The notes under the pieces: model-generated | Told to the model about the DNA's origin: nothing | Database searches by the model: none | What the model saw: only the letters and a program-made list of their open reading frames with translations | Position numbers and translations under genes: made by a program | From: Nemertoderma westbladi | Lineage: Eukaryota > Animalia > Xenacoelomorpha | Reading direction: 5' to 3' | DNA length: 64,000 bases | Assembly: GCA_032718475.1 (NCBI GenBank) | Contig: JAUCBJ010005016.1 | Coordinates: forward strand, 159,187-223,186 | Part shown: positions 20,661 to 61,708 of the stretch, piece after piece | How the letters are laid out: the number at the start of each line of letters is the position of its first letter | How positions within the stretch are numbered: the first letter of the stretch is position 1

Positions 20661-21904
20661 TGTAAAAGCTTTTGTGGGATAACTGATTCGTTTGCCTTGC
20701 TAACCAGTTCCCCCCAGGCGCTGGAATACTCTAAAAAAGGGATCTATAACTCGAATAGCGCAAGCTACCGGCTGATTGGCTGATTCGCTGTGCGAAGGGA
20801 TCTGGGCTACGTTTGATTGTCCAACCAGCTTGGGAAAGTTGCCCCACAGCCCTGCTTTCTGTATCTGCCAATAGGATTTGAGTTGATTTTGATTTCGACC
20901 TATCACAGATCTACTGAACTGAATTTTCCTATCTGTATGCTCTTTCTCTGTGTTGGGTGGAAGCCTTTGTAAATAAGGTTATTCTTATCAGTTTTCAGTG
21001 TTGTTGGTCTTTCTGTCCTGAGCCAGGAGAGAACGGCTTGTAAATATTTTGTGCTTTTCTGTTTTAGTCTAACACTAGTAGGCTTAATTATAAGGACATA
21101 TATCCGTTATCAAACTAATGAACACACTGAATCACTGTGCATAACAATCCAATTCAAACTGATGTTTGGTCTTTCTTGCATACTTTTATATTACTATTTT
21201 TACTACTATTTTTATCTCTACTATTATTACTACTTTTATACTGCTATTTACTGTCAGTTCTTCATAATATGGTTGATGAATTATTATATTTGGAATAACG
21301 ATAAATAACCCCGAAACCCAATATTCTTGATATACCGAAGGTAAGAGAGAAAGGTTACATATAACGATTGTGACTTATGTTAAAGTGGTTTGAAGTGAAT
21401 CTAATGTTATTTGATAGACCCTACATGAGTCGGTCCGTGTTCCTTTTATATATAACTAAAATCAGTGAAGATCGGCAGATCAGTGTGCAGTATTGTGCAG
21501 CATTGTGTATGAGTGAGACTGATAACGAAGCATTTCCTAAAGAATGCGCCATATATGTGAATTATAACTAAGCCATATCGTTGTGAGTAGTTTAAGTCAT
21601 AACTCTGTTTATATAGATAGAGCGCCACGTCCTAAAGGAACCTGTTAATATTTCCCGAAGGTGAATAATATTGTCAGAGATTATATAATACTGTCAGTCG
21701 AATAATACATTAGGCTTACATAGCAATAAGATTAAGCCGTCGAACCCAATCTCCCGGGTATATCCAGCGGGTGAATGATCGCGCACAGATTGGTTTCGAC
21801 CAGTGTAGTGAATTAAATACTTGTCATAGGCTAAAAGTGATTTATTATCTAGAAGACATCCTAATTTGGCGGGTTAAACTGCCAAAGGTCTGAAAGCGCG
21901 AACA
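20661..21904 (+). repeat. Element 1 5' LTR (1244 bp)
   Basis: TG...CA ends. The ~21235-21904 part is near-identical to 36103-36770, while the upstream part is strongly divergent from the 3' LTR. Hairpin TTTGGCG...TGCCAAA near the 3' end. Confidence 0.93.
21096..21110 (+). promoter_or_regulatory. Candidate self-primer segment in the LTR (ACATATATCCGTTAT)
   Basis: Exact reverse complement of 21905-21919. Also present in the 3' LTR at 36034-36048, although the sequence just downstream differs between the LTRs. Confidence 0.8.
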
Positions 21905-21919
21905 ATAACGGATATATGT
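21905..21919 (+). promoter_or_regulatory. Non-tRNA primer-binding site of element 1 (ATAACGGATATATGT)
   Basis: Abuts the LTR 3' end, has no TGG, and is complementary to 21096-21110. Confidence 0.8.
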
Positions 21920-21984
21920 TTCTTTATTGCAGTAAGCAATAAAGTTGAAAGTACCGGTCAACCGGTAAACCTGAACGGTACATC

Positions 21985-35119: not shown

Positions 35120-35581
35120 ACGCTATTCTACAAAGATCAGAAAGGAAACCTACGTTTGTTCAGATAAACGTAAGTTGTAACAGCAAGTCCAAGCGATAAA
35201 CGAATTGTCTTTATCTCAGTTCGATTGTGAAATCCAGAATCTCTAAGAAGATATCGCACTTAGACAACCCCATTCTCTGCGAGAGTTTTTGGATGAACGT
35301 ATCCAGCTACGAGCGGAGGAAAATCAGCTCGAGGAGAAGCATATCGAAACGGCGGATACCCCGACCATAATCCTACACCTTCTGATGCAATCATATTGCA
35401 CCCTTCACCCAGGATTTATAGCCCTCCTAGTAAAGTGGCTCCCCCCAAAGAGAAAAGGACTCTTGCTAGCCTCAAAAAACTGCGTAAACGCCGCCTGCGT
35501 AAGAAAGACTAACTGTTTAGAGTATTTTTATATTTTAGAAACTGTGATTTGTTATATTTTATAGACTTAAATCCCATTTTC

Positions 35582-35590
35582 TGGGAGCGG
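35582..35590 (+). promoter_or_regulatory. Polypurine tract of element 1
   Basis: TGGGAGCGG immediately precedes the 3' LTR start TGTAAAAG. Confidence 0.7.
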
Positions 35591-36770
35591 TGTAAAAGCT
35601 TTTGCGTCATTAACCGGTTATTTTCCCTTAAAGTACTCTGTAGTTGGTTTGCCAGGCATAAAAAGGCCGTGTCCTTGCTGTACTGGTGTTTTAGAGGACA
35701 TAAAAGTCATTTCTTATGTATTTGTACTGTATTCGTACTTTAGAGGACATAATCCACAATCTCGTGACGCGATAAGCTAGATACTCTTGAAAACAGTGTC
35801 GCTACCATGACGATGGCTAACAGCTGATATTGCCATGTCGACGTTTCTTTGTTTCTTTGTTCTCTCGTTGTTCGGTTGACCAATCAGAGCGTTTGTTGTC
35901 TCTGTGTTGGAGGTGTATACAGAGGCTCAGTAGTTCAGTGTTATGTTTTTTGCCCAGAGCCAAGGAAGAACGGCTTTGGAGTATTTTTGTGTTTTTCTGC
36001 TTTAGCCTTACACTAGTAGGCTTAATTATAAGGACATATATCCGTTATCATAACATAACATACCATACCTAATCAAACAACCTGTGCATACTTTTATATT
36101 GTTATACTGCTATTTACTGTCAGTTCTTCATAATATGGTTGATGAATTATTATATTTGGAATAACGATAAATAACCCCGAAAACCCAATATTCTTGATAT
36201 ACCGAAGGTAAGAGAGAAAGGTTACATATAACGATTGTGACTTATGTTAAAGTGGTTTGAAGTGAATCTAATGTTATTTGATAGACCCTACATGATTCGG
36301 TCCGTGTTCCTTTTATATGTGACTAAAATCAGTGAAGATCGGCAGATCAGTGTGCAGTATTGTGCAGCATTGTGTATGAGTGAGACTGATAACGAAGCAT
36401 TTCCTAAAGAATGCGCCATATATGTGAATTGTAACTAAGCCATATCGTTGTGAGTAGTTTAAGTCATAACTCTGTTTATATAGATAGAGCGCCACGTCCT
36501 AAAGGAACTGTTAATATTCCCCGAAGGTGAATAATATTGTCAGAGATTATATAATACTGTCAGTCGAATAATACATTAGGCTTACATAGCAATACGATTA
36601 AGCCGTCGAACCCAATCTCCCGGGTATATCCAGCGGGTGAATGATCGCGCACCGATTGGTTTCGACTAGTGTAGTGAATCAAATACTTGTCAGAGGCTAA
36701 AAGTGATTTATTATCTAGAAGACATCCTAATTTGGCGGGTTAAACTGCCAAAGGTCTGAAAGCGCGAACA
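35591..36770 (+). repeat. Element 1 3' LTR (1180 bp)
   Basis: Same termini as the 5' LTR. CCAAT at ~35880 and Inr-like TCAGT at ~35927 and ~35935. Confidence 0.93.
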
Positions 36771-37460: not shown

Positions 37461-38766
37461 ATAATATCGTGTCGGTCAGTGTCAGTCTGTGTTGTATATC
37501 GCTTATTGCGCTCCTTAATGTATGTTTATTATATATTGTACTGTCCCTTTTACTTCCGACTTTAACTCAATTCTTATGATAAATAAATGCCACTGCAACT
37601 GGTTTGCGCTCTTGAGTATATAATATAATATATAGATGTTGCGCTTAACAAATACGCCATGTCGAAATATGTATATTGGCGCTTTTGCGACCTGTTTATA
37701 TAAGATGAGGGCGTTCTGCGGGATATAATGGCGTTTGGTAGGCATGTCATCTTAACGCCATAATGGCGATAATGCTACTTAAGACCAAAAAATTCATCAT
37801 AAGTGGCGTTTGATTATCAGTTTATATTCAAGCGTTCCTAGCACCAATTATTAACATATTATTAATCATCCTATCATCTCTTGTATTTCATGCAACGAAA
37901 AAAGCATAATGTTCCTGGGGAACGATTTATAATTCTTTTTGACGGCACCCTGGCTAGCAATAAAAAATAAACCATTTTTAATATAAACAATTAAAATGAG
38001 CATAATATTAATTAAAGCTATAAACTCATGGGGTGACTTGACTATTAATGGCATTTATTGTGGTATATAGGCCTAAGTAAAAACACGGGACCTACAGTAA
38101 ATTATCAGCAATTTACGATTTATGTTCGCATAAGAAGCCTAAGAAGTTCGCTAGGTTCACCAAAGTCAGGTTTCTTAGGATCTAATTTAGACTTTTTATC
38201 CTGCAGGCTGCATCGCATGTACCAGTTATACCAAACAGCCAATATACAAAAATTAAATACACAAGCGTGATTGGCGCAAGTTTGTGGTGCTGCTTCCCAG
38301 TGGATAGTTACTGCCCACAACTCTATTCGTTTCGTAGGCCGTTCCTTCCCCCTTTGAGGATTCACTCTTATTGTCATCTCTTGGGCTCCCTCTTGAGAAT
38401 GCCTTCATTTGTGATGCGAAACAGGACGAGCGCAACCAGTCTAGTGATGGAGACGAGTTTATTCACGAAATTGGCAAATTGTTGACCTATTTATTGTTGG
38501 CACACTGTAAACATTTTACAACTAAAGTGGCGTTTCAATTCAAATTCACATATAAAACAAATTAATAATAAGCAGAATAATTCTGCGGGTAATATTTAGG
38601 AATGTCCAGTCCAGTGTACTGTAATTTGTTTCGAAGGCCACATTATTTACATAAACTGAACCATAACGTACATGGACCTTCAAAATCATAGGCAAAACCA
38701 TACCGGTATCACCTGCACTGTGACCTTAAGAGATCTAAAGACTTACCCGAATCATCATAACCATAT

Positions 38767-39326
38767 CGTCCCTTTCATTTTGAAACCACCTATATGCCAT
38801 TTTTGCCGAAATGGTGATTTCTGCATTTCTTTATGTTAAAATGTATTCTGAATCCGATTAACACACTTAGAAGGCCATGCTCCCACGTATAACTGACTTT
38901 TCAAAACCACCTATATGCCAGTTTTGCATAGACCGCATTATAAAGAAATTTACGAAACGTTGATTTAAAATTGGAAACAACGAATCAGGAGCTAGAATTG
39001 TTGTTTATTATGATAGAGGGAGATTTGTTTTATATTTTTAAAACTTAATAATCGAATTTGTCTTAAGGGTTTTAATACTTTTTGAGTAATCATTGTGAAA
39101 AATGAAATATTTTTTTTGAAACAACCTATATCCCTATACATAGTTTCCTATCTAATATGTTACATAATTCCAATACCATAACTGTTTTTGTTTAAAATCG
39201 TTACATTTAATGGATTCAAAAGTAAATAAGACCAAAATCCTGGAATATTACTTTCAAACAAAATTAGAATCGAAAATGCCGTTTTACAGGAAATTAGATT
39301 TAGGTTGTTTGAAAATGAAAGGGACG
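38767..39326. mobile_element. 560-bp MITE with ~26-bp TIRs and ATAT TSD (Sola1-like)
   Basis: CGTCCCTTTCATTTTGAAACCACCTA ... TAGGTTGTTTGAAAATGAAAGGGACG with ATAT on both sides. Empty paralogous sites CATATCTTGAAA occur at ~40023 and ~42878. The family call is inferred from the 4-bp AWWT TSD. Confidence 0.85.
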
Positions 39327-40650
39327 ATATCTTGAAACAGAACCCTAACATGAAACCATAACACCAAAAAACGCAAAACTTAACCATACCCTTACTCTGG
39401 GCGTACTGAAGCCATTTTACATTTTTAATAACCACATTGGCAAATTGTTAACATATTTAGCTTCTGGCGCATGCCGAATATTTTATAACAAAATTGGCGT
39501 TTCATTACATGTTCGTAAATATTACAAATTGAGACAAGTTTTTTGATGTTCGTGTGCCAGAATATACTTAGTAGAAATGCAATGAAGAGCTCATATTATA
39601 TAATAATATAATATACATTATATATAATTATACAATTTATGAAGAGCTGAAGAAATCATATTGGCTATCGACAATTTTTGTCGAATTAAAACCATTTTAC
39701 GTAGATACTGGCGTTATGTAGTCTTTTATTCACGAAATTGGCATATTTATAGTTGGCACATTGTAAACATTTTACATCTAAATTGGCGTTTCAATTCAAA
39801 TTCCCATATAAAACAAATTGATAAGACATGTTATTTTTTATATATCAGAAACCAAAAAATTTACTGTCAGGAATGTCAAGCGTACATTAATTTGTTTGGA
39901 AAGCCACTGAACCAATAGCCAAACCTTAATCTGAACCATAATATGGACCATAACAAAACCATACCGGTATCATTACCTGCACTGTGACCTTAAGAGATCT
40001 AAAGAATTACCCGAATCATAATCATATCTTGAAACAGAACCCTTACATGAAACCATAACAACGATAACGCAAAACTGAACCACACTTACTCTGGGCGTAT
40101 TAAAACCATTTTATTCTTAAAATGTTACTTTTTCGCTCGAATTTAGTCCAACATCGGGAGAAAAAGTTTCACTTTTTTTCCCTAGGGAAAAAAGTAACCC
40201 ATAGGAAAAAAGTAAATTAAAATATTTTTGGCGGAATTTCTTAAATTTTATTACATATATTGAAACAGCATCGACGTAGAAAAGGTTTGCAAGTAATTTG
40301 AGCAAAATCCATTCACTCACTCACTCAAAAGTTATTGCCACTTTAGTGTCTGCGCGGCGTATCTCCAAAACGGAACTCAATATCCAATATGGGTTTAGGT
40401 AGTTAAGCGGCTCCCTAGTTACGTAATAAATTTTCGAGAATACTAAATTATTTAACATGGAGTATGGCAACATCAGGAGTTGAAGAGTACAATAATTTGA
40501 ATCGCAGTAACTATGGAAGCAATATAGTAAAATACTGCAGTTCAATTTATTTTGTAACACTACGGTAGGCTACTAATACTGTACATACATAGAATATTGC
40601 TATGTTTTATTAAAGAATTTAGCAACAAAAAAGTACCAATTTAAGAATAA

Positions 40651-40797
40651 AATTACGTATTACATGGGAATAAAAAGGTAGAACATTTTTTTTCAATATT
40701 CTCTCCACCCTTTATTAACCTCGCTGCGCTCGGTAAATAAAATGCCTCGAGAATAATGAAAAAAAGTTCTACTTTTTTTCCCAAGTCATAAATAATT
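40651..40797. mobile_element. Small palindromic element
   Basis: Imperfect ~50-bp inverted arms (AATTACGTATTACATGGGAA... / ...TTCCCAAGTCATAAATAATT) around a CTCGCTGCGCTCGG core. Confidence 0.7.
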
Positions 40798-40798
40798 A

Positions 40799-41190
40799 TT
40801 ATTCCAAAATTGTAACATTACTCAACGCCGTTAGTATTACCATCGAGTTGTTATTTAGCACTTTACAACTTTAGAGGACATTACTGCATTGTATTGGCCT
40901 GTACATTTAGTATTGTGTTTGGTGTTATTGTTTACCTGGTAACCCATGACGGCGTTAAGTAATGTCCACTAAGGGGACATTACGGGGTATATCTATTGAT
41001 AACCAGGAGGGCCTAGCTATATTATTATAACATGGCTCCAAACGCCACCATAAATATAAGCTATCTTATTTATAACATAATTTATGTCATTTTTACATTT
41101 ATTTATACAGCAACTAATATAATTTGTGCAGTTTCTATCACTTATACTGTATATGTACAATCATTTCGTAATGTTAAAATTTTGGAATAA
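40799..41190. mobile_element. ~390-bp MITE with 23-bp TIRs
   Basis: TTATTCCAAAATTGTAACATTAC and GTAATGTTAAAATTTTGGAATAA are complementary at 22 of 23 positions. Confidence 0.7.
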
Positions 41191-41197
41191 AACTACA

Positions 41198-41335
41198 TAC
41201 ATACTTGTTGCAAAGTACAGTTACAGTGTTCTGATCCTCGTGGCTTTATTTCCACTCACTCACTAACGTTCGTTCGTGTAACAAAGCCACTCGGATCATT
41301 ACACTGTAAAGTGCTACTTTACACACAAGTATGTA
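41198..41335. mobile_element. Small palindromic element
   Basis: Imperfect inverted arms TACATACTTG..TTACAGTGT..TGATCC..GTGGCTTT and AAAGCCAC..GGATCA..ACACTGTAA..CAAGTATGTA. Confidence 0.7.
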
Positions 41336-42112
41336 AATACAGTAGTTATTACATATACCCTGGCGATATGTAGACTTTTAATAGCCACATTGGCAAATTG
41401 TTTACATATTTAGCATCTGGCGCATGCCGAACATTTTATAACAAAATTGGCGTTTCATTACATGTTCGTAAATATTACAAATTTAGACAAGTTTTTTGTT
41501 GTTTGTGTGCTAGAATATACTTAGTAGAAATGCAATGAACAGAGAAGCCGGCAAAGAAATGCCCTTGTCCCATGTAAATTGTTGAGAAAACCCCCATCAT
41601 TAAAATTGCCTGACCGCATAACACGAACCTTTATCCTAACCTTAACACGAACCACATTAAAACCTTGTCATTATTACTTGTAGGGCGTACCTAGACATTC
41701 AACAGTCCGGCATACCATACAGCCATACCAATACTTCAATGCAGAAACGTGATTGGCGCAAGTTTTCGGTGCTGCTTCCCAGTGGATGTTTACTGGTCAC
41801 ACATCTTTTCGTATCATGCAAAGCGGAACCATTTCCCCAAGACAAAATACGGCAATGAACCATGTCGTATCCAGAACCTCAACAGAACCACACAATAAGA
41901 ACATATTGGCTATCGACAATTTTTGTCGAATTAAAACCAGTTTACGTAGATACTGGCGTTATGTAGTCTTTTATTCACAAAATTGGCAAATTGTTCACAT
42001 TGGCATATTTATAGTTGGCACATAGTAAACATTTTACATCTAAATTGGCGTTTCAATTCAAATTCCCATATAAAACAATTTTTTTATTTTTACACAATTT
42101 TTTATATTTTGA

Positions 42113-42650
42113 ATGATATTTTTACACTTTAATGTTGATGGAAACTTGACAACCATTGATAATAATCAACTAAGGAAGGTCGACGACTTCCAGTACCTTG
42201 GATCATGGATAGAGAGTAGCAAAAAGGACATAGAAGTTAGGAAAGCAAAGGCTTGGGTAGCTCCCAAATCACTTGAACAACAAATTGATGGTTGCTACAC
42301 AAGACTACCAAGGACATCGCTAAACATCAGCTGGAGACAACACATGACAAACGCCGAGCTTTATGGTACAATACCACCTGTATCAACCACCCTCCGTGAA
42401 CGCAGATTAAGATTCAGTGGGCACTGCTGGCGAAGTAAAGACGAGGTCATACCAGATCTACTTTTCTGACAACCAACTCATGGAAAGCGTAGTCATGGAC
42501 GACCGGCCATAACATATATAGATCAATTTGAAAGGGATACTAAACTTGGGAGAAACTAAATTGCGACAACTATGGAGAATCGGGAAGCCTGTAAGGATCT
42601 AATTTCCACTGTCCGAGTTCGCTCGACCTTGTAGTAGTAGTAGTAGTAGT
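42113..42650 (+). pseudogene. 5'-truncated RTE-clade LINE with (GTA)n tail
   Basis: VDDFQYLGSWI, DGCYTRL..LNISWRQHMTNAELYG and RERRLRFSGHCWR are typical of the RTE C-terminus. Internal deletion, stop at 42469, and a GTA-repeat tail at 42631-42650. Confidence 0.85.
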
Positions 42651-43563
42651 ATATTTTATATGTCAGAAACCAAAAAAATCACTGAGCAGAATTCTGCGGG
42701 TAATATTTAGGAATGCCCAGCGTACAGTAATTTATTTAGAACGCCACATCATTTACATAATCTGAACCAATAGCCAAACCTTAATCTGAACCATAATATG
42801 GACCATAACAAAACCATACCGGTATCATTACCTGTACTGTGACCTTAAGAGATCTAAAGACTTACCCGAATCATAATCATATCTTGAAAAAGAACCCTTA
42901 CATGAAACCATAACAACGATAACGCAAAACTGAACCTTACTCTGGGGGTATTGAAACCATTTTACATATAACCTGGCGATATGTAGACTTTTAATAACCT
43001 CATTGGAAAATTGTTTACATATTTAGCATCTGGCGCATGCCGAACATTTTATAACAAAATTGGCGTTTCATTACCCCCATAATTAAAATTGCCTGACCGC
43101 ATAACCCGAACCTTTATCCTAACCCTAACATGAACTACATTTTAAAACCTTGTCATTATTACTTGTAGGGCGTACCTAGACATTCAACAGTCCGTCATAC
43201 CATACAGCCATACCAATACTTCAATGCAGAAACGTGATTGGCGCAAGTTTTCGGTGCTGCTTCCCAGTGGATGTTTACTGTTCACACATATGTTCGTTTC
43301 ATCAGCCGTTCCATCCCCTTTGGGGCTCCACTCTTAATGTCATTTCTTGGCCTGGCCTCTTGAGAATGCCTTCATTCGTGAGGAGAAACCTACCGGTCAG
43401 CTGGCTGCCGTCGGCTGATCAGTGATTGCATTCACCAAGTTTAGCTTATTGGGGTCGGTCTGGACCAGCCCATTTATTTTGGTGAACGCAGACTTATTAA
43501 ACGAGTGCAATGATAGTTGTAATGAAGACGAGTCTGTGCTGACTAAAATACTCAACCATATTA

Positions 43564-43845
43564 GGTTCCACCTTGGTGTAGTGGTTGCATTGAATTCACA
43601 TCTCCTGTAGGTCGTGGTTTCGATCCTTACATGGGCCAGTACAGTTTTTGTTTCAGCACGAATGCTTTAAAGTGGCCAACCAGGGTTCATCTCTGCCTTG
43701 CATCCTTAAGTGGTAGCTAAATGAGTACTAGAGTTTCCTCTGGGGAGTTAAGTTCTGGGGGGACCGCACTGGAAATCAGACTTGGTGCGTAATCCCTGGC
43801 CAAGCGGCCGAAGAAAATTTACTTTTTTTACTTTACTTTACTTTA
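43564..43845 (+). mobile_element. tRNA-derived SINE with a Nin/Deu-like central domain
   Basis: A box TGGTGTAGTGG (43574-43584), B box GGTTTCGATCC (43616-43626), central GCCTTGCATCCTTAAGTGGTAGCTAAATGAGTAC resembling the Nin-domain core, and an (ACTTT)n tail. Confidence 0.7.
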
Positions 43846-46163
43846 TAACGCAAAACAGAATCATTCCTCAAAGACACACAATGAACCATGTCGTATCCAG
43901 AACCTAAGCAGAACCACACAATAAGATAATATTGGCTATCGTCACTTTTGGCGAAATATAACTATTTTACATACATACTGGCGTTATGTAGTCTTTTATT
44001 CACGAAATTGGCAAATTGTTCACATATTTATAGTTGGCACATTGTAAACATTTTACATCTAAATTGGCGTCCCATATAAAACAAATGAATAAGACAAATG
44101 GATAGATTTATTTATACATAACAGATGCACCAAAATGCATATAGGTATTGTCCAACATACTGTAGCATATAGGATTACCCCTAAAGCTTTGCAGCTTATT
44201 TCCAAGGGGGTCCTTTATGTTACTTGGTTACAAATACAATATTACACTACGCTAACCTAAAACCAATATAAAACGTAATTACACTATGTACATGTACAAC
44301 TTTACCGAGAGCGTGAGAATTGTACGACTCAACGATAAAGACGTAACTATGTACAGTACAATTTAATATTAATATAAAACGAAATTAAACTACGTACAAC
44401 TTTAACGAGAGCGAGACAATACTCCGACTCAACGAAAAATAAGTAACTATCGCCTTTAACCATTTTCGGAATATTTAAATCCTTCATTTGAACCCCATGG
44501 GCAGCACAATGCCGCCTTAATCAATTGTAAGAATATTATTGGTTAAATTGAAATTAAATTGCATAAATTATGTAATAAAATAATAATATATTACCCTCAA
44601 ACCAATAGGAATCCCTTCAAGCAATATTAAATTAACTTTTCTAGACCAGTTTTTCCTGCCGCCCAACAAGAATATGATTATATGATATAATATGATTTAA
44701 ATAAATTTAAATTTAATAACTATGCGATAACGAAAAACTTGAGACAGGGGGGGGGGGGGGGGGGGGGATGGAAGCAAAACAGTTTTAATTTTGAGAGTAA
44801 TCAACTGTTATTTGCGTCGAATTTCCCCTGGAGAGGGATGAAATTTTATTGTGTCCAGTCCCCCCCCCCCCTATCTGCAAAACTGAATCATAACATTACT
44901 CTGGGCGTATTGAGACCATTTTACATATACCCTGGCGATTTGTCGACTTTTAATAACCTCATTGGCAAATTGTTAACATATTTAGCATCTGGCGCATGCC
45001 GAATATTTTATAACAAATTTGGCGTTTCATTACATGTTCGTAAATATTACAAATTGAGACAAGTTTCTTGTTGTTCGTGTGCCAGAATATACTTAGTAGA
45101 AATGCAATAAACAGAGAAGCCGGCAAAAATAATAAATGTAAATTGTTGAGAAAACTCATATCATTAAAATTGTCTGACCACATAACCCGAACCTTTATCC
45201 TAACCCTAACTTGAACTACATTAAAACCTTGTCATTATTACTTGTAGGGCGTACCTAGACATTCAACAGTCCGTCATACCATACAGCCATACCAATACTT
45301 CAATGCAGAAACGTGATTGGCGCAAGTTTTCGGTGCTGCTTCCCAGTGGATATTTACTGGTCACACATATTTTCGTTTCATCAGCCGTTCCTTCCCACTC
45401 TGGGGCTCCACTCCATTGTAATTACAAATCACATTCTATGAATTCAATAGCTAAATTTGCAGTGAAAACATTGTCAAAGGGAGTGAAAATAATGTAGTTG
45501 ATTGTTTAACGCCATTTCTATGGAAGGAGTTAAAATAATGTTCTATTTTTAAATAAAATTTATTGGTTTTACAGTATTATATTATTAGCTTCACAATTTT
45601 TTCATTTATGGCGCATTTCCTACTAATCCCTTATTAGAAAATTCATTTTAATTATAATTTGTTAATTCGTCATTTTTTTGTATTTATTGCGCATTGTTAA
45701 CTGCGATCTGAACCAATATCATATATAAGAAAGGCGTATTTGATACATTATATCTATATATATATATGTAATATCATATTTAACACTACGGACTTAGAGC
45801 TTTCTCCCCCACTCCATGAATAATTAGATCCCCACAGGGACTGGAGAAAGCAGAACAGGCTCTACTGCTGTCCGAAATAAATTTACCTTCATAGAAGATT
45901 TGATTAGTAGTGTAATTATTAGATTTAATGCAGACCATTGCTAATGCATTGCTTTGCTCCTTCGTATGCAGAAGTCTTCAACAGCAGATATCGGAATCCA
46001 CGACCGCTTATTTTAGAGCGTTAAATTAGTCCGCAAAGTTTATTGAAATTTTCCCATTTTCTATTATATATCTATTTCTACTACCCCAACTGCACAATTT
46101 CGTCTTATTCATAAATATAAATAAAAAATGATAAAATAACCTTTGTAGGAACCCTTCATTGTG

Positions 46164-46670
46164 TGTGACGACTGAGGCCAAGTCGTGGGTTTTTTTGGTA
46201 ACTGTAATATGACGCAGCGTCATCGCGTATTGTTACCAAGCTATATGCAGGCCTGAAACAGGGACACCGCAGATAGCTTCAACTTTGATAATTGAAAACA
46301 TAAAGTATAAAAGAAGCTTTCATGTTTATTCACAGTATATCTATAACAATACAAATTGATTCTTGGCAGCGTATAAAACAGTGAGCAATAACTAATCTTC
46401 ACAACTAATAATTATGTGGCCTAAAGCTAAAATGGACCCTCCACCTAATATATATATATTGTCAACCTAATCTACGTGAGTGATAATAGAGGTGAATTCA
46501 GTGCATTGCAAGGCCAATCAGCTATTGGCTAGTTTATTATCTGGGATTCCCTCGACTGATTGGGCTTAAGCAATGCTTTGAATGTTTCCTCTTGGTGAAA
46601 GCAATGTAGGCCTATAATAAATGATTGCAGATTGGAATCGGGGTTTGATGGGCATGCTACAGCCGTGACA
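46164..46670 (-). repeat. Element 2 3' LTR (507 bp)
   Basis: Only two substitutions seen relative to 55450-55956. Confidence 0.96.
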
Positions 46671-47186
46671 GTCCCCTCTGCAATTTCGCTCGCGAATTGC
46701 ATTACTTTAACATGATATAAAAGGAAAATCTAAAATAATAATTATTCTTCTTCGATAAAAAAATATGTATTACGAAATTTGATATGAATTTGATTCCCAA
46801 AAATTAATATAAACATGGACTTCACTGAGTGCTTTGTAGTATGTACCGACACCGTAAAGCAAATGGGTCTTAACGTTCTAAAAAACTTTCACTTTCGTTT
46901 TCCTAAATTATATAATTACAAAACATGTCATAATAATTAGAGCCTTTCTTTTTAAATCGAAAATAACCTGTTGTGTGTCGCCCAGAAATTTAAAATGGCT
47001 CATAAACTTACAACAATTGGATATTTATAGAGTTTGAAGGCTGTTGTGGTGGGGGATAATTGAAATGTCAAGGAGGAAAGCAAGATTGCGTTTCTGATTG
47101 GAACACTAATAAAGTGTATCTCTATTTTAATCAGGACTCTGCTGGAAATGGAAAACACGAAACAATATTGGATTTCGGCGTATGAT

Positions 47187-47327
47187 ATGGTCAGCTAACC
47201 CGCCGAGAGCCTTGTAAGGGGATCACGGGCTGCCTACTGTTTAAATGAGGTATTAATTTAACTACAGTAAATGGTCAGCTAACCCGCCGGGAGCCTTGTA
47301 AGGGAAGGGGGTCACGGGTAGCCTACT
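47187..47327. repeat. Duplicated ~52-57-bp GC-rich hairpin motif in the element 2 3' UTR
   Basis: ATGGTCAGCTAACCCGCCG(A/G)GAGCCTTGTAAGGG..TCACGGG..GCCTACT at 47187-47238 and 47271-47327. Confidence 0.8.
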
Positions 47328-47818
47328 TATGAAAACCACAGAGACTACCGGACGTCGTCAAGTGCCTCTGGGTCAAAAGGGATGATGTGGGACTATTAAT
47401 TAAATTAGCCAAAAATCCAATAAGGTACGAGTCTTCATACAGCACAAAATATGGAAATATAATGTAGAAAATGTTCCCAAAACAAACACATTTTGATGGG
47501 GGATTTATAAATACCGGCCTTCAAATCTAAAAATAATGATATAATGAATTTTAAATCGGGAATATTTGAATTATATGAATTTCTGGGAGACAGAACAAGA
47601 ATGGTTTTCTTGTTTAAAGGTCTAACATCATGAAATATATGCTTGTTTTATATTTATGGGTCTTTACAAATTTTACTATACAAAACTCTCATAAACAATC
47701 CAAAAATTTTCTAGATTATTTTTATTGAAAAAAAATAATAGAAACAAATTTGTAAATTATAATTCCAAAGTTAATGGTTAATGAAACAATTCGAGTTCAA
47801 TAATAGAGTTAGCTCATA

Positions 47819-50800
47819 TTATATGTCTGCCTCAAGCATAATAAGATCATGTATAGAACGTTTATAAGTGGTTCCACTGCTATGGGTTAGAATGTCGACA
47901 GAACGAACATTGCCGTATTCATCAGGGTACACACGTGTAATCCGTCCCCAAGGCCACTGTGATCGAGGGATAATTTCTTGTGAGATAAGAACAACGTCAT
48001 TGACTTTCACATCACGTTGTTGTCGTGTCCAGTCCTTTCTGTCTTGAAGAAGACACATATAACCAGTTATCCATTCGTTCCAAAAGCGAGTCGCTAGTAT
48101 CTGACCTTGCTTCCATGTCTTTGTTGAGTAGATGTCGTTATCATCTTGTGAATCCACTGGGACATGATAAGCTGCTCTCTGTAACAATAAATGATTAGGG
48201 GTTAATGGTTCACTTGACTTTGGATCGTTATGGATAGTGGTTATTGGCCTGCTATTCAAAATACCCTCCACTTCGACCATGTACGTATGTAAAACATCCT
48301 CTGAGACTAACTGGTTTTCTAATACGGCTATTAAAATACGTCTGGTTAATTGAACTATTCGTTCATGTAACCCTGCTGTATGTGAAGCATAGGGGGTTAG
48401 AAATTGACATTTGGTTCCTTTATTTCTAACGTATGTCTCGGATGGACCCTGCTCAAGATCAGAAAAAAATGTTATATCAGCTTCTGCCCCTGTAAGATTA
48501 GTGCCGTTATCAGATATTATTTCAACTGGAACGCCCCTACGTGATATAAATCGCCGATAGGCATTAATAAAGGCATCTGATGACTTGTCAACAGCTAGTT
48601 CCAGGTGAATGGCACGAGCGTTCTGGCACACAAAAATAATCATGTAACGCTTTACAGTAATGCGCCCTCTTGTGGCCCTACATGGCCCTATCATGTCCAG
48701 TGAAATGAAAGTAAAAGCATATGCTGTAAACGGGATGATGGTAAGTTAGCCATTATTTGGGTCATGGGGCGCCCTTTTATTTTGTGGCATTGAAAGCAAG
48801 TAGATGTGACAGACCGGGCTACAGCCTGGCTTTTGATTACCCAAAACCGTTCACGCAACTTGCTAACAATATATGAGTAACCAACGTGTCCCAAGCTGGT
48901 ATGAATATATAATATAATAGCTCGAGTTATTGGATTATCATTAGGCAGAATAATTGGAAAAGCCGTATCATAGGGTACTAATGATTGAGCAATACGACTT
49001 GATACACGCATAATGTTGTTCACATCAAGAAAAGGACAGAATTTTCTCAAGGAACTATTAAACAAAATATTCTTACCTAAAGACAGGCGTGTATATTCGT
49101 TGGGAAATGATATTTTTTGAGCATAACGAAATATACATTTTTGTGCATTTTCCATATCACGGGCGGTGATATTTGGTGACGCTAACATTGCCTGTCTAGA
49201 TGTTGGATTATATAAGTAGTGACAATAGCGAATGATGTAGGCGATTTTTACCTGCAACTTAATCCAAGATGATGTTGTAGAAATCAGATAATTTAATCGC
49301 TCGTCTATTGTTAAATTTCGTGTTTTCTGAAATAAGGCATGGCGACGCTTGTTTTTAAGAACAAGATGAGCTTTACGAGTTCCAGCAATCAAACAATCGG
49401 CCCCATAAGAATCACTATGTGCCCCTTTCTGTTCACTCTTATTTGTTGTTACGTCTAAGTGTTCAGCTGATTCAAATTTAGACTCAGAATATTCAAGAAT
49501 ATCGGTTAACATATTGGCTACAATATTTACCTGTGGTTCTGGCTCCTCCAATTCTACCTGAAGAGCAAGTTCTGTAGCTTCAACATGTGACACTTTAATG
49601 TCCAGATCGTTTTCACTAAATACATACAAACCTGGTTGAAAAGGCAATTGCCAATTCGACTCTGCTTCAGATAGAAATTTTGGGCCGTACCACCAACATC
49701 TTGAATTGAGTAGTACTTTGGCATCTACTCCACGACTTACTAAATCGGCAGGGTTTTCCTTACCTGCAACATGTCGCCATTGATTCGTTTGAGTGTAACT
49801 ATGAATGAGAGCAAGTCGATTGGCTACAAATCGTTTAAAGGATTTAGTAACATTGTTGATTTGACATAACACAACAGTGGAATCTGTCCAAAAATGAACT
49901 TCTACCTGAAAATCTAATTCTCCTTGAACGATTTTCGCACTGGTTGCAGCTAACACTGCGGCAACTAATTCTTTATGTGGGGTTGAACTGCTATCATGGA
50001 TACCGAAAACCTTACCTTTACTAAAAACTAAAGATATGTCAATAGTTTCTGTAGTGCAGCGACGTAGATATAAGACAGCACCAAATGCTTTCTCTGATGC
50101 GTCGGCAAAGCAATGTATTGATATGTTGAGATGTTTGTCGGACCGGTGTGATAAGCCAAGGGAATACTCAGAGCCTTCAACTCACTTACCTGTTCGATCC
50201 ACTTTAACCATGATCGTTGGAGTTCGTTTGAAATTATGTCCTTCCAACCGTATTCAGCTTTCCAAATGGATTGCAAAACTAATTTTCCTTTAACAAGAAA
50301 AGGAGATAAAAATCCGAGAGGATCAAATATCGACATATACTGACTAAGACAACCGCATTTCGTAAGTGGACGCACACGGTGAGTGGACTTAAAAGTTAAT
50401 AAGTCTGTTTCTGGTTCCCAGATAACACCTAAAGCTCGGGTTACCGGTAGTTTGTCGAGATCAAGATCGATGGGTTGAGCTATAATTCCCAAGGGCTCGA
50501 TAGCTCTGAGAAATTTACGAGAATTTGAATGGAATTTCTTAAGATTAAACCCACCCTTTGCTAAGCACTGGATTAATGAATATGAAAGCTTTATTGCCTC
50601 GGCTACAGTTTCAACTGATGGGAGACCATCATCTACATAGAATGAACGTTCAATAACCTCTGCAACTTCAGTACCAAACTGATCTGCGTTATCCCATCCA
50701 CATTGTTTAACTGTGTTACAAGCAATGGATTGAGAACAACGGGCTCCAAAAATATGTCGCAACATTTTGTAAACAATAATGTGCTTATGACCGGGAGGCT

Positions 50801-53800
50801 TCCATAAAATGCGCAAGCTATCGCTGTCTTCATCAGTTACTCTTATCTGGTGGTACATTCCCTCAATATCACAAATGAAGGCTACTGATTTCTGACGGAA
50901 ACGGAGAAGTACTCCTATAAGAGAGGAAACTTGATTTGGGCCATCTAGGAGCTGAGTGTTTAATGACATACCTTTATATGATGCAGCAGCATCGTTGACA
51001 ATCCTTATCTTGCCGGGTTTGTTTATATTCTCCACATAGTGGTGCGGCAAATAATAAGTTTGCTGTGAAGAAATGTTAGCTTCTTTGGAAGACATCTTAA
51101 TAGCGTATCCCTTTTCTTCATATTCCTTTAATTGATTATCATACATGACATATTTATCATGATTAGATTCTAGACGTTTCAATAATTGATTTAATCGGCG
51201 TTTCGCTAATGGGTAATTATTTATAAGAGAAGGGGGGTTTGATTTCCACAGCATACTCACCATATAGCGGCCATTTACTAACCTTGAACTTTCCTTTAGA
51301 ATATCTAAAGCGTAAGAATCATTACGAGATAATGTCAAGTCTTCATCACTACTAAATTCAGTTTTAACTAATCCTTCTATACCAAGTGATTGTTTAACTA
51401 ATGACACTAAATTAGAATCGATGGATTCGTCAGACATTTTATTTATTTGAAATTGCTGTCGATCCTTATAAGGGATACTTGGAACGGGACCAATAATACA
51501 CCAACCAAATATGGACTATGGATGGTGTATCATCACCACCGAAAACGAAACGGTCTTCAAAAATTGCAAATGGATAATCACGTCCAAGTAAAATTGTTAC
51601 TTGCGGAATATCAATAATCTCCTGTTGACTTAATTCTGGCAACAATTTACTTGTGTGAGGCCATTGTCCTAAATTAATTTGGTTCACGTTGTAATTATAA
51701 TCATATTTGTAATTATCAACCACATACATTTGTTCTGCTTCCAACGTGTAACCTTCATTTGCTCCTAACTTGTTTGGTAGAGGGCGTATGGAACAATCAA
51801 CCTTACCTGCTTTTCCGACAGTGGAATTAAACACAGCTTTAACATTAAGGTTAATATTGTAACTTACCTGAACTCCAAGATAGTCAATAACAAACTTATC
51901 TATAAGTGATGTTGTACTTCCTCCATCCAATAATGCGTAGGTAGAAATGGATAGGGAGTTTATCGTTATCATGACAGGAACAACTGGCAACCATACAGAA
52001 TGCAATGCTGTTGTGTGTGAGACTGACCTAGGATTCTGTGATATGGAAGAGGAAGAAATATTCATATTTGAATTTGATGACAAATTCGTTTCAGTCTGAT
52101 TCAAAACATCATTGTCTGAAACTGCAATAATGTTTGTAGTATTAATAGATGAGTGCATTGAAGGAGGCTTATGCAAAAGTACATTATGATCACCTGTGCA
52201 ACCATATATTGGACACACCATAGTAGATTGGCAATTTTGTGCTTCATGCTTAGGATTTAAACATCGGCGACAAATATGTGCCTTCTCTATATATGCGCCA
52301 CGTGAATCACAATTTAGTGCCAGAAATGTTTCACACCTGTATATAGGGTGGTTGCCTTTGCAAAACAAACACGTTAGAATTCTCTTAGATTTACTGTTTT
52401 GTGAAACACTTGAATTTGATGCAGACTTGACCAATGGAACATCATTATTATTTGATGTCGATGTTCGCAAAAGGCTACTCACTGCTGGTGCTGCATCAGT
52501 TTTCATACTTGTTACTTTAAAAGGTTTGTTTACCATGCCTTGCGTTGGTACAGCGTTACGTCTGGTCGTTTCACACTCAGATGAAAGAAAGTAAACGGGA
52601 TCGTTTGCAAATTCTGCCTCATCCTTTATGAATGAAGCTAATTCACTCAAAATTGGTTCGCGTCTATATTTGCGGCGTATGATAACAGCCTGTCTACACC
52701 AGCGCCTTTGCATACGTTCATCGAGATTCAAAAATATTTTTCTTAAATGTGCTGATGAATTCAATTCACCAGTAGATATAAAATGTTTTAAAACTAAAAC
52801 GTGTTGGTTTAATTTGTCAGCATAGGCTCTGAGTTTTAGACGGCGTTGGTCAATTGTGCCACTTTTCAAATCTGCTGTGGCAGTTAAATCTGCCACTACC
52901 TGTTCAACTATTACACTTGGATGCCCATAACGGTCATGCAATGCTGACCAGGCTGCATCATAGCCCCCAGGAATTCCAGAATATCCCTTTATTAAACTCT
53001 GAGGCTCCGGTCCAAGGTATTTGAATAAGGCATTAAATTTCTTCACTTCTGTTAATTTTAAGGACTCTATATGTGCCACAAATGTAGCTACAAAAGGCAA
53101 GTATAATCCTGGCTCACCGCCATATTTCCAAGGTTCTGATACTGGTGCGGACATCTTAGTGTGCATTCTCTCAATGGCCGCAATTGTGAGTTGGTTAGTC
53201 ATATTGAATGCGGTGAGTAACTGAGATTGGGTATCAGTGGCTGTGGCTGCTGCATCATAATGCTGAGCAGAATGTTGTGGCTGGGATATGCCTGCTGCAT
53301 AAGAACTTGGAGGCATATTAGTGTTTGTCATAGATGGGTAAGTTGATCCCTGAAAAAAACTGGAAGGATCTGTCCCATAGGGATTATTTGGGTTAGTCCC
53401 CTCGTGAGAGGTTGAATTTACGTAAGAATTTTCCCCATTGAATAAATCATTACACACGTCTCCAATGGTACCAGATAACGTCACATTTGGGGCAAAATTC
53501 GTAGGTGTTATAGTAGACATTAAGTTTTGTCGATTTGTACTATTATCGTATAGGTTGGGCACAAAAATACTATTTCTATGACTGTTACCTAGTGGGCATT
53601 CTGTTGGGTTTGAGACGCCAACATATGGACTAGATGTGCCACCCTGAAAATTGGAAGTTAAAAATCTAGGCTTAGAATCAAATGTTGCGGATATTGGCCT
53701 AGAAAATGATTTAATATAAGAATCAGAAGGTATCATTGAGTTTGACATTGACTGGCTGACATCTGAAATATAAGTATTATTATTATCTAAATCAAGTGGT

Positions 53801-55192
53801 AGTAATTCTTGTTGCGAAGTAAAACACGGCTGAAATTTATTTTGAGCCTGCAAATAATTACTTGAATTAGCGGGAACATGCGCAGTGTTCCTGAGCGTCT
53901 TAGCGCCTGAGGAACTGGTAAGTGTAGTTATCCCTATACCTGTTGTTGTATTCTGAGTAAATGAAGGTATATCAAGATAATATATATTTCCAGCTGATGA
54001 AACAGGAACAGTATTGGAACAGTAATGCAGCTCCATTGCTACAAGGATAGGTAGATTGTGGCATCAAACAATAATTATTTCTAGCAAAATCTATCGATTT
54101 TCCTCCATGGGTGTGTGAGTAGGGTTGCTGCTGTCGGTGAAATGTGTTTTCCCCTACACTACTGCATGTTTTACTTTTGCTTTCCTCTGAAACTGGTAAA
54201 TTAAATTCTACTGTAGTTTCTGGATTTTGTAATTCTATCTCAGTTAAATGTGAAAGCGATTTTTCTTCTTGCAATGCTATGGCAGCTTTTAATTCAGCGA
54301 ATTTTAGTTCGTCTTGCGCTGCAGCTTGTTTAATATCCTTAACTTCAGCCTCAGCTTGCTTTAATTGTGTTTCCCTTTGTTTAAGTTGTATTAGCTGCTG
54401 CAACTGTAATTCCTTGCGTTTTCGCTCACTTTCTGTTTGCAAAGTTCGGCGTTTAGCAGCCGATAATTGAGAGGTTCTAGAGATTCTGGTATCCTTAGAG
54501 GACAAAGAAGATGCTCCGTTTGAGTTACCAGAAAGGGGTACAATCGGTAAATTTTCCGCTCGAAATGTAACTGTACCTCTAGTGACAGGGGGAGGAGTTA
54601 AAAATTCATCCCCAGAACCAAAACCAGTTAATTGCGCTGGTTGTTTAATTACATTTGGATGCCTTTGGTCAACACGTGATGTCACTGGCGTATCATAACT
54701 ACCTATGGCGTCACGCATTGAGGCTATCTTGTTTTCTATAGAAGCTATGAGCGAAACTGATTCGTTAAATACCTTATCAGCTTCCTCGCGTGCGTGTTGC
54801 TGCCTCAAATATTGGAGGACTGTGGAATAAATTTCCTGTATCTCTAATTTTAGTTGTGTACACTCACAATATAACTTATTTAGCTCTTCTTTACCAAATT
54901 TCGATCTACCAGCTAGAAAAATATTATAATTTTTTGTAAATGCTGATTTATGTCCTCCTAATATTCGTTTGAAGCTGGTACTGCTTGAAGACCGCGCGAT
55001 TTGCGGTACTGCGTCCCTTTGGTTAGTACCAATAGAGTCAGCGGCCCTCCGACGGCTATTGGGACTAATCAAAGATAAATCTACAGAGCCACTTACCGTT
55101 TCATTTAAGTTAGAATCCTCGAGGAACTCTGAGACTTCTTCTTCAGCTGTTTCCCCCTCACTGAAGCTGTATAAGGAATCACGATCATCCAT
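47819..55192 (-). pseudogene. Frameshifted BEL/Pao gag-pol, split into five ORFs
   Basis: Gag KYGGEPGLY, Zn knuckles CLFCKGNHPIYRC, CRRCLNPKH and CPIYGCTGDHNVLLH, protease ALLDGGS, RT DIEGMYHQI and YVDD, RNase H HCFADAS (out of frame) and NPADLVSRG, integrase SDNGTNL. Frame breaks near 54030, 51500, 50117 and 48725. Confidence 0.93.
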
Positions 55193-55439
55193 ACTTCTTC
55201 AGTAAATAAATGGTATAGATCTAAACTACTGTACAATAATGGCACAGTTCTATACGCTAGGTTGTAAATTAAAATTTAAACGCAATTTAAATTTACATAA
55301 ATTTGATTAATTAAATTGAAGATAAGAGTTAAATGTTGTTGGAGAAACCAATCGTTTAAACTAGATTAGCTGCTCAATTTAAAATTTATTAATAATTAAA
55401 TGATAATTTTGTATTCAAAAATTATTTTATCTGACACAA

Positions 55440-55449
55440 TGTTTTATAC
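55440..55449 (-). promoter_or_regulatory. Non-tRNA primer-binding site of element 2 (GTATAAAACA on -)
   Basis: Abuts the 5' LTR end, has no TGG, and is complementary to the LTR segment 55657-55666. Confidence 0.7.
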
Positions 55450-55956
55450 TGTGACGACTGAGGCCAAGTCGTGGGTTTTTTTGGTAACTGTAATATGACG
55501 CAGCGTCATCGCGTATTGTTACCAAGCTATATGCAGGCCTGAAACAGGGACACCGCAGATAGCTTCAACTTTGATAATAGAAAACATAAAGTATAAAAGA
55601 AGCTTTCATGTTTATTCACAGTATATCTATAACAATACAAATTGATTCTTGGCAGCGTATAAAACAGTGAGCAATAACTAATCTTCACAACTAATAATTA
55701 TGTGGCCTAAAGCTAAAATGGACCCTCCACCTAATATATATACATTGTCAACCTAATCTACGTGAGTGATAATAGAGGTGAATTCAGTGCATTGCAAGGC
55801 CAATCAGCTATTGGCTAGTTTATTATCTGGGATTCCCTCGACTGATTGGGCTTAAGCAATGCTTTGAATGTTTCCTCTTGGTGAAAGCAATGTAGGCCTA
55901 TAATAAATGATTGCAGATTGGAATCGGGGTTTGATGGGCATGCTACAGCCGTGACA
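55450..55956 (-). repeat. Element 2 5' LTR (507 bp)
   Basis: TG...CA ends. TATA-like run at ~55734-55742, CCAAT boxes, and hairpin ACGACT-GAGGCCA-AGTCGT next to the U5 end. Confidence 0.96.
55657..55666 (-). promoter_or_regulatory. Candidate self-primer segment in the element 2 LTR (TGTTTTATAC on -)
   Basis: Reverse complement of the PBS-position 10-mer, overlapped at its 5' end on - by Inr-like CTCACT. Also present in the other LTR at 46371-46380. Confidence 0.68.
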
Positions 55957-55961
55957 TTGTG

Positions 55962-56192
55962 TCAAGTACAAAGCACACATCTCTAACCAGACATTATATA
56001 ACATTGGAGGTGTCTCATTGGTACCTCCAAGCTTGACACTAGAACAAAACCGCCTCCGCTTTGCATGATATTACTTTCGCCGTGAGGACCAGCCAGTGCA
56101 TAATCTTCATTGAGACGTATCTTAAAGGACACTGGGCTTGAAGATGCGGATGATCTAGCAAATGTCATGGGTGATAGGGAGTTGCGGAGGTG
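55962..56192 (+). pseudogene. Old RTE-like LINE 3' remnant next to element 2
   Basis: Broken frames give KYKAHISNQTLY, LEQNRLRFA and LKDTGLEDADDLANVMGDRELRR, similar to the RTE C-terminus at 42113. Confidence 0.6.
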
Positions 56193-56796: not shown

Positions 56797-59020
56797 ATAA
56801 TGTATGTCAGCTGTAACCTATTAACTGTTACTGTTCTATATAACTAAATATTGTATGTGTCTGCTGTAACCTAGAAACTGTTACTGTTCTATATAACTAA
56901 ATATTGTATGTGTCAGCTGTAACCTAGAAACTGTTACTGTTCTATATAACTAAATATTGTATGTGTCAGCTGTAACCTAGAAACTGTTACTATTCTATAT
57001 AAATAAGTATTGTATGTGTCTGCTGTAACCTAGTAACTGTTACTATTCTATATAACTAAATATTGTATGTGTCTGCTGTAACCTAGTAACTGTTACTATT
57101 CTATATAACTAAATATTGTATATGTCTGCTGTATCCTAGTAACTGTTACTATTCTATATAACTAAATATTGTATGTGTCAGCTGTAACCTAGTAACTGTT
57201 ACTATTCTATATAACTAAATATTGTATGTGTCTGCTGTAACCTAGTAACTGTTACTATTCTATATAAATAAATATTGTATGTGTCTGCTGTAACCTAGTA
57301 ACTGTTACTATTCTATATAACTAAATATTGTATGTCTCTGCTGTAACCTAGTAACTGTTACTATTCTATATAACTAAATATTGTATGTGTCTGCTGTAAC
57401 CTAGAAACTGTTACTATTCTATATAACTAAATATTGTATGTGTCTGCTGTAACCTAGTAACTGTTACTATTCTATTTAACTAAATATTGTATGTGTCAGC
57501 TGTAACCTAGTAACTGTTACTGTTCTATATAACTAAATATTGTATGTGTCTGCTGTAACCTAGTAACTGTTACTATTCTATATAAATAAATATTGTATGT
57601 GTCAGCTGTAACCTAGTAACTGTTACTATTCTATATAACTAAATATTGTATGTGTCTGCTGTAACCTAGAAACTGTTACTATTCTATATAAATAAATATT
57701 GTATATGTCAGCTGTAACCTAGTAACTGTTACTATTCTATATAACTAAATATTGTATATGTCTGCTGTAACCTAGTAACTGTTACTATTCTATATAAATA
57801 AATATTGTATATGTCTGCTGTAACCTAGTAACTGTTACTATTCTATATAACTAAATATTGTATGTGTCAGCTGTAACCTAGTAACTGTTACTATTCTATA
57901 TAACTAAATATTGTATGTGTCAGCTGTAACCTAGTAACTGTTACTATTCTATATAAATAAATATTGTATGTGTCAGCTGTAACCTAGAAACTGTTACTAG
58001 TCTATATAAATAAATATTGTATGTGTCTGCTGTAACCTAGAAACTGTTACTATTCTATATAACTAAATATTGTATGTGTCTGCTGTAACCTAGTAACTGT
58101 TACTATTCTATTTAACTAAATATTGTATGTGTCTGCTGTAACCTAGTAACTGTTACTATTCTATATAACTAAATATTGTATGTGTCTGCTGTAACCTAGT
58201 AACTGTTACTATTCTATATAAATAAATATTGTATGTGTCAGCTGTAACCTAGTAACTGTTACTATTCTATATAACTAAATATTGTATGTGTCTGCTGTAA
58301 CCTAGAAACTGTTACTATTCTATATAAATAAATATTGTATATGTCAGCTGTAACCTAGTAACTGTTACTATTCTATATAACTAAATATTGTATATGTCTG
58401 CTGTAACCTAGTAACTGTTACTATTCTATATAAATAAATATTGTATATGTCTGCTGTAACCTAGTAACTGTTACTATTCTATATAGCTAAATATTGTATG
58501 TGTCAGCTGTAACCTAGTAACTGTTACTATTCTATATAACTAAATATTGTATGTGTCAGCTGTAACCTAGTAACTGTTACTATTCTATATAAATAAATAT
58601 TGTATATGTCAGCTGTAACCTAGTAACTGTTACTATTCTATATAACTAAATATTGTATATGTCTGCTGTAACCTAGTAACTGTTACTATTCTATATAACT
58701 AAATATTGTATATGTCAGCTGTAACCTAGTAACTGTTACTATTCTATATAACTAAATATTGTATATGTCTGCTGTAACCTAGTAACTGTTACTATTCTAT
58801 ATAAATAAATATTGTTTGTGTCTGCTGTAACCTAGTAACTGTTACTATTCTATATAACTAAATATTGTATGTGTCTGCTGTAACCTAGAAACTGTTACTA
58901 TTCTATATAACTAAATATTGTATGTGTCAGCTGTAACCTAGTAACTGTTACTATTCTATATAAATAAATATTGTATGTGTCAGCTGTAACCTAGAAACTG
59001 TTACTAGTCTATATAAATAC
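56797..59020. repeat. 53-bp AT-rich satellite (~42 copies)
   Basis: Unit CTGTAACCTAGTAACTGTTACTATTCTATATAACTAAATATTGTATGTGTCTG with period 53 (56811 to 56864). Confidence 0.97.
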
Positions 59021-60819: not shown

Positions 60820-61112
60820 GTAGTTTGAAGTAGAGCTTTGAAATAATAAGGAAATCAACCTTTCCAGTTTTATTTACTATAGGTTGTTTATTGGTAAGTA
60901 ATGTATTGCACCATACGTTACCAACTTTAAATGATTTACCAGAGTGTTTAGAAAAATATATACGAGCTATGTATTTATTAAATATACTAGCTATTTATAT
61001 TAAATATGTTTGTTTATGAAAATACTGTAATAGCGTTTTAAATCAATTTTATTCAACTTTGGTTATATGTTAATAAAGAGTTAGTTAATAGTCGATTGAG
61101 GTAAGGCAATAT

Positions 61113-61571
61113 CAATAAGAATTAAGTTTTATTTACTGTTTTAATATAATAAAATAAATATAACTATATTTCAAGGGCTAATGGCCCACATTGTCAATAA
61201 TCAACTGAATGTAAACAGAATTAATGAATTATTACAGCTACCTATTTATGAAATGTTTTTAACAGTACAAAGGTACCTAACTACCTAACTACTAAATTAC
61301 TATACGCACAAAATTATTTAATTTTCAGGAACCCCCCGCTTTCCAAGGGGGGTTCCTGAAAATTAAATAATTTTGTGCGTATAGTAATTTAGTAGTTAGG
61401 TAGTTAGGTACCTTTGTACTGTTAAAAACATTTCATAAATAGGTAGCTGTAATAATTCATTAATTCTGTTTACATTCAGTTGATTATTGACAATGTGGGC
61501 CATTAGCCCTTGAAATATAGTTATATTTATTTTATTATATTAAAACAGTAAATAAAACTTAATTCTTATTG
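61113..61571. repeat. Perfect 225-bp inverted repeat with a 9-nt loop
   Basis: 61113-61337 is the reverse complement of 61347-61571, with loop GCTTTCCAA. Confidence 0.95.
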
Positions 61572-61708
61572 TTAATAAAGAGTGGACGTTTTGACAATTA
61601 AATAAGTAGTTTGAAGGAAAATAAGTGACTTCCAACAAATATAATCGATATGGTTTGAATTTCAAACAACTCGCACGCTATTCTCGTGGAGTTATCTATC
61701 GCTGGTTT

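Follow-up and report, generated by a model that had tools for sequence, protein, structure and literature searches.

A BEL/Pao element of Nemertoderma westbladi with a predicted Tf1-like self-primer that a candidate LTR intron interrupts in most relatives

Self-comparison of the window, that is, the 64,000-nt stretch of Nemertoderma westbladi contig JAUCBJ010005016.1 analysed here, identified two LTR elements, both of them BEL/Pao elements, with E1 located on the plus strand (20661-36770) and E2, the one carrying a 10-nt self-complement, on the minus strand (46164-55956). The E2 LTRs (5' LTR at 55450..55956 and 3' LTR at 46164..46670) are 507 bp each, have the form TG...CA and are 99.6% identical, and a polypurine tract at 46671..46681 lies flush with the 3' LTR. 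With only two mismatches between the LTRs over 507 positions, and a 5-bp target-site duplication on either side of the element (left copy at 55957..55961, right copy at 46159-46163), the LTR edge is defined independently of the self-priming hypothesis. E2 is a young element.

The gag-pol region of E2 (47819..55198, minus strand) is distributed over five separate reading frames and includes DUF1759, an RT region, Peptidase_A17, an integrase and DUF5641. The Pfam domains DUF1759, Peptidase_A17, Integrase_H2C2 and DUF5641 were detected, homologues share the same set, and the named homologues, at ~40% identity, belong to sea urchins, corals, anemones, mussels, lancelets and fish. In the order of its Pao-type domains (gag, RT, RNase H, integrase), as well as in its LTRs, polypurine tract and target duplication, E2 agrees with BEL/Pao (Belpaoviridae), but the 18-nt tRNA-complementary site of the ICTV profile is absent and no TGG follows the LTR. 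E2 is placed in BEL/Pao by its protein domains, and the missing tRNA site is the departure.

The companion element E1 has a 5' LTR of 1244 bp (20661..21904) and a 3' LTR of 1180 bp (35591..36770), and its coding region is one open frame of 2,736 codons. It looks chimeric: a target duplication is absent, and the two LTRs are dissimilar over the first ~400 nt and once more directly past the primer block, while the final 669 nt are 98% identical. A 15-nt predicted self-primer at 21096..21110, with an identical copy at 36034-36048, matches the primer-binding site at 21905..21919, which has no TGG; the block containing the primer is the same in the two LTRs even though the sequence has diverged on either side of it, and a 15-nt match was seen in 0 of 20,000 shuffles. 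A 14-nt split reading of E1, which uses a non-consensus donor, was discarded because it follows merely from the 15-nt contiguous match. In both LTRs a pyrimidine-rich, acceptor-like tract (21040-21070 and 35980-36008) ends ~30 nt before the primer, and could reflect an upstream intron or an alternative start site. The 2.2-kb leader of E1 contains a 289-bp tandem duplication (22276-22844), and pol is separated from the 3' LTR by an open frame of 381 codons (33974-35119, plus strand) with no Pfam match and no usable Atlas hit.

The remainder of the window is rich in repeats. E1 abuts the end of a ~20-kb array of a 49-bp satellite (227-20664), ~42 copies of a 53-bp satellite occupy 56805-59016, and a mosaic of short dispersed repeats, 70-96% alike, extends from 38225 to 45422. 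A perfect inverted repeat at 61110-61574, with 228-nt arms and a 9-nt loop, is either a foldback element or an assembly artefact.

The original prediction was that the 5' LTR of E2 is followed without a spacer by a TGG-less 10-mer whose exact complement lies ~207 nt upstream within the LTR, behind CTCAC and an AT-rich stretch, and all of these features were borne out. The primer-binding site GTATAAAACA (55449-55440, minus strand) directly follows the terminal CA of the 5' LTR, and its complement, the predicted self-primer, occupies LTR positions 291-300 (55666-55657), 207 nt before the LTR end, without an intron; a second copy lies in the 3' LTR at 46380-46371. CTCAC immediately precedes the segment, and its A at 55668, two bases before the paired segment, is the predicted transcription start. 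The AT-rich, TATA-like stretch CATAATTA (55695..55702, putative function) begins at 55702, 34 nt above this A, and ends 27 nt above it, and a second TATA-like run starts at 55742. An AATAAA at 55611..55616, 40 nt after the primer segment, likely sets the end of R. The stem-loop that had been described next to the U5 end of both elements was recovered for E2, the element to which this result applies, as a 5-bp stem with a 9-nt loop at 55454..55472 that is present in the centroid structure. When 55668-55400 was folded, the primer helix appeared in both the minimum-energy and the centroid structures (z -2.8), and the former also contains a 6-bp inner helix; the primer duplex itself is AT-rich and weak (-8.3 kcal/mol). 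No tRNA was predicted by ARAGORN in the 64,000-nt window, all loci together contain only two tRNA genes, and Rfam gave no match within 55200-56000.

As had been cautioned, an AT-rich 10-mer is weak evidence when taken alone. Among dinucleotide-shuffled E2 LTRs, 37 of 20,000 reached 10 nt at offset 0, and 176 of 20,000 (about 1%) did so with offsets 0-3 allowed; in the internal region of E2, 5 of 8,749 positions, position 1 included, match the LTR by at least 10 nt. By itself the E2 match is suggestive, not decisive. Its self-complement becomes strong because relatives show the same pairing.

Relatives were retrieved with a 67-protein alignment as query, which yielded 80 metagenome loci (the best 80 of at least 542 confirmed) and 45 further loci from prokaryote-labelled assemblies, 125 in all. 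The latter (L081-L125) are tblastn matches in assemblies labelled as bacteria or archaea and are likely animal host DNA binned there. Two scans of viral contigs revealed no relative. For want of a usable LTR, approximately 80 of the 125 loci were left unscored, and L113 and L117 were excluded from the both-edge set on account of unclear LTR edges. This left 23 relatives with both LTR edges usable, 19 of which have no TGG after the LTR; the 3' edge of one, L028, is the contig end and was fixed by its relative L033.

When only contiguous complements at offsets 0-3 were sought, just 2 of the 23 relatives reached 10 nt or more, and many of the short contiguous matches start right after a pyrimidine tract and AG. 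Given the rarity of contiguous matches, a search for complements split by one GT-AG intron was therefore tried. The final test allowed offsets 0-4 and a match that was contiguous or extended across GTRAG...YAG, with a threshold of at least 10 nt; the widening of the offsets from 0-3 to 0-4, and the move of the L044 edge to the end of its exact repeat, were chosen after the data had been seen. Under this test, 15 of 21 TGG-less elements with both edges fixed, E1 and E2 included, have an own-LTR complement of 10-15 nt, as compared with none of the four TGG elements and none of the 496 mismatched (cross) element pairs. The lineage-wide enrichment of own-LTR complementarity that had been proposed is thereby upheld, with the 15 positive elements representing 13 families once L028/L033 and L088/L090 are merged. 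Six of the 21 TGG-less elements fall below the strict cut-off. Four of them are near misses, namely L030 (11 nt, with GTACGT as the donor), L084 (11 nt with a single mismatch), L066 (8 nt in an old copy) and L105 (12 nt located ~10 bases past an uncertain edge), and the others are L025 and L057.

A second set comprised 22 loci with an LTR start only or on a circular contig, from which 20 usable regions were scored with the LTR end left free. These were scored after the idea had been formed, and L012, L017 and L018 are closely related to elements of the first set. Of the 20 regions, eight had a split match of at least 10 nt, eight a contiguous match and 14 a match of either kind, the corresponding counts among 376 cross pairs being 0, 12 and 12; the other six regions show no match.

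In most relatives, the LTR yields the complement only when a GT-AG intron within it is skipped, a feature that the original prediction had missed. The intron interrupts the paired segment 3-9 nt into it and is 67-451 nt long, and among the 25 tabulated hits 16 are split and nine contiguous. With no requirement beyond GT and AG, 11 relatives gave a split match of at least 10 nt, and for 10 of them the best solutions included one with a GTRAG donor; the background of GTRAG in the LTRs of these 11 relatives is 47 of 1,028 GT dinucleotides. The acceptors are pyrimidine-rich, with 0.75 across nine introns as compared with 0.55 at 112 other YAG sites (p 1e-4). Donor and acceptor are common to L088 and L090, and where the exon ends in CAC or TAA the primer site reads GTG or TTA; as judged by sequence, these differences are two compensatory changes across the intron. 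Similarly, in the sisters L003 (split) and L011 (contiguous), primer sites and primers differ together.

The best evidence here for splicing is provided by L061 and L054, members of one family with the same primer site, since a 168-nt GT-AG intron present in L061 is gone from L054 exactly at the junction, which is what reverse transcription of spliced RNA leaves. In L050 the acceptor is present in the 5' LTR and the 3' LTR is of the intron-less type, but the contig could be a collapsed assembly. Intron-less LTRs likely arise when RNA spliced in its 3' copy of R is reverse-transcribed. E1 and E2 are both intron-less forms, and the E2 LTR has neither a GTRAG donor nor a split match. The E2 family was not found elsewhere among the retrieved relatives; that E2 itself once had an intron is suggested by its relatives only, the intron-loss step being supported for one family.

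To compare geometry, the 25 hits were reduced to 22 families, with only matches of at least 10 nt entered. The paired length is 11 nt in 14 families, 10 in three, 12 in three and 15 in two, and the primer of Tf1 is reportedly 11 nt long. In 17 of 22 families the base two positions ahead of the paired segment is an A, against a background of 0.26 (p 8e-7, before correction for the 50 columns inspected), and the A of E2 at 55668 occupies this conserved position. In every hit the 3' arm begins 0-4 nt after the LTR end, the length of this spacer varying among families. The poly(A) signal, where seen, lies 0-93 nt beyond the primer segment, and priming from a natural RNA 3' end was rejected since these signals are downstream of the segment. 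The predicted helix has a mean probability of at least 0.5 in 19 of 25 modelled RNAs and below 0.5 in six. A clear TATA box is not conserved among the tabulated families, and the LTRs of L022, L044, L048 and L054 end in TA rather than CA.

With respect to E2 only, chance has to be considered, in that its AT-rich 10-mer could be fortuitous and its true primer something else, or its site decayed. Shuffling puts such a coincidence at about 0.2-0.9%, the E2 site reaches 9 nt against the LTR of one other family, and a coding region in five frames would suit a decayed element. However, the two LTRs are nearly identical, the sister E1 has a 15-nt match, and E2 displays the family geometry (offset 0, a site starting with GT, an A two bases upstream and a poly(A) signal 40 nt downstream), and this explanation is considered very improbable.

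The pairing might alternatively have been selected for packaging, dimerisation or translation control, with priming by, for example, a tRNA fragment or a protein. Long-range pairing is common in the leaders of retroelements, which counts for a role of this kind, as does the finding that Tf1-like flanking duplexes are not a family trait, the own pair being best in 2 of 22 families for the inner duplex and 1 of 22 for the outer one in a crude fixed-window test. Half-tRNA primers also exist in Ty1/copia, according to the retrieved portion of PMC6317226. Yet the 3' arm lies precisely where minus-strand synthesis must begin, and the pairing is absent from all four TGG elements. Moreover, as expected from the proposal that different primer-binding sites match their own LTRs, the primer sites of the 25 tabulated elements comprise 22 distinct 10-mers, every one of which pairs with the LTR of its own element, and a single host RNA acting as primer would therefore not explain the data. 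A role other than priming is thus thought to be quite unlikely.

An RT tree was built from 44 RT-RNase H pieces from the fetched loci only, L091 and L105 being omitted as too short; two long-branch rows served as outgroup, and the primer-type labels were assigned by the author. A 40-row clade (100/99) holds all self-pairing elements and two TGG elements, L026 and L040, and two further TGG elements fall outside it. E1 and E2 had been regarded as unrelated, but this description did not survive, as their RT-RNase H regions are 41% identical and the two are sisters (96/96) on long branches, separate from the 34-row clade into which most relatives fall. They are distinct families yet sisters in the tree. 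Contiguous forms are scattered among split forms, as repeated intron loss would give. The tree is compatible with one or more gains of self-priming and does not distinguish between them. In L001, a TGG-starting stretch after the self-primer site (56-85) resembles the tRNA site of its tree neighbour L040, and is possibly a relic of tRNA priming.

Taken together, the data make it likely that E2 is an intron-less member of a BEL/Pao lineage with Tf1-like self-priming, in most relatives of which the primer would be built by splicing. Transcription would begin at or near the A at 55668, and RNA bases +3 to +12 would fold back onto the site just past U5. A cut after the paired segment would then free a 3'-OH for copying of U5 and the rest of R. 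Self-priming of Tf1 reportedly requires RNase H, as the title of a reference has it, and in E2 the cut would be made by its own RNase H if the Tf1 mechanism applies. As the primer would be cut off before copying, progeny LTRs would take the primer region from the 3' copy of R, from which the primer-coding DNA would be restored. In most relatives the primer would exist only after host splicing, as the GT-AG intron interrupts the segment. Since the progeny region would come from the 3' copy of R, the intron could survive only if that copy is usually unspliced, and a spliced 3' copy would give an E2-like LTR.

The same segment might instead prime in trans, supplied either by the copy of R at the 3' end of genomic RNA or by short spliced RNAs transcribed from other LTRs. 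The segment is present in both E2 LTRs, and exact intron loss shows that the 3' copy is sometimes spliced, as priming in trans would have it. Against this, the segment has no natural 3' end, given the position of the poly(A) signals beyond it, and the fixed upstream A and 11-nt length fit an RNA 5' end. Routine splicing of the 3' copy would also erase the intron in each cycle, whereas 16 of 25 tabulated elements keep it. Priming in trans is accordingly held to be improbable, and folding of the RNA 5' end onto the site beyond U5 is preferred.

More broadly, it is somewhat probable that a large BEL/Pao lineage of aquatic animals has exchanged tRNA priming for a primer assembled by the spliceosome from a first exon of 4-9 nt and the start of exon 2. 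Splicing would then act as a licence for replication, only the cap-proximal copy would serve as a primer, the unspliced 3' copy would keep the intron, and E1 and E2 would be processed escapees. If so, self-priming arose in all three LTR superfamilies and here depends on host splicing, which would invert the usual rule, under which the RNA through which an LTR element replicates has to stay unspliced, and would open a route to tissue-specific control of transposition. Exact, testable predictions would follow for the start site, the junction and the cut site. The finding also suggests why finders of tRNA-based primer-binding sites would miss many BEL/Pao elements.

Replication of BEL/Pao elements has been described as poorly understood and tRNA-primed. 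A search of the openly available literature, Repbase reports and supplements aside, returned no report of BEL/Pao self-priming or of a splice-junction primer. A term search of the retrieved text of the BEL/Pao surveys PMC554778, PMC3118150, PMC6238403 and PMC8556966 found no mention of PBS, tRNA or priming, and the retrieved parts of PMC8220671, PMC3601003 and PMC6934838 contain nothing on BEL/Pao priming. The ICTV profile of Belpaoviridae (PMC8742986) gives tRNA priming from an 18-nt site for tRNA-Arg or tRNA-Gly. E2 resembles that family in domain set and order, TG...CA LTRs and polypurine tract, but E2 and 20 other elements of the strict set differ from it in having no TGG site.

Self-primers amid otherwise tRNA-using lineages have been predicted from own-LTR complementarity for Tcn1 (plant Ty3/gypsy) and TAR/Houba/Osr-1 (Ty1/copia), as described in the retrieved portion of PMC6317226. 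These elements belong to other superfamilies, and no intron through the primer is mentioned in that portion. A close parallel is the self-priming of Tf1, Tf2 and Tj1 and the Tf1/sushi group, in which, according to the retrieved sections of PMC5341516, PMC10085805 and PMC4600332, a self-primer at the 5' terminus of the RNA anneals to the site behind the 5' LTR and is cut by RT. Like them, E2 is without a tRNA site, has a complement of its own LTR directly after the LTR and has a predicted primer of similar length. However, Tf1/sushi elements are chromoviruses of Ty3/gypsy, whereas E2 has BEL/Pao domains and no chromodomain in Pfam, and so belongs to another superfamily. The flanks of the three-duplex 'pretzel' of Tf1 are not conserved in the BEL/Pao set studied here, in which the primers are preceded by 1-2 unpaired bases and the site is separated from the LTR by 0-4 nt. 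Finally, the primer of the relatives of E2, unlike that of Tf1, is usually split by an LTR intron.
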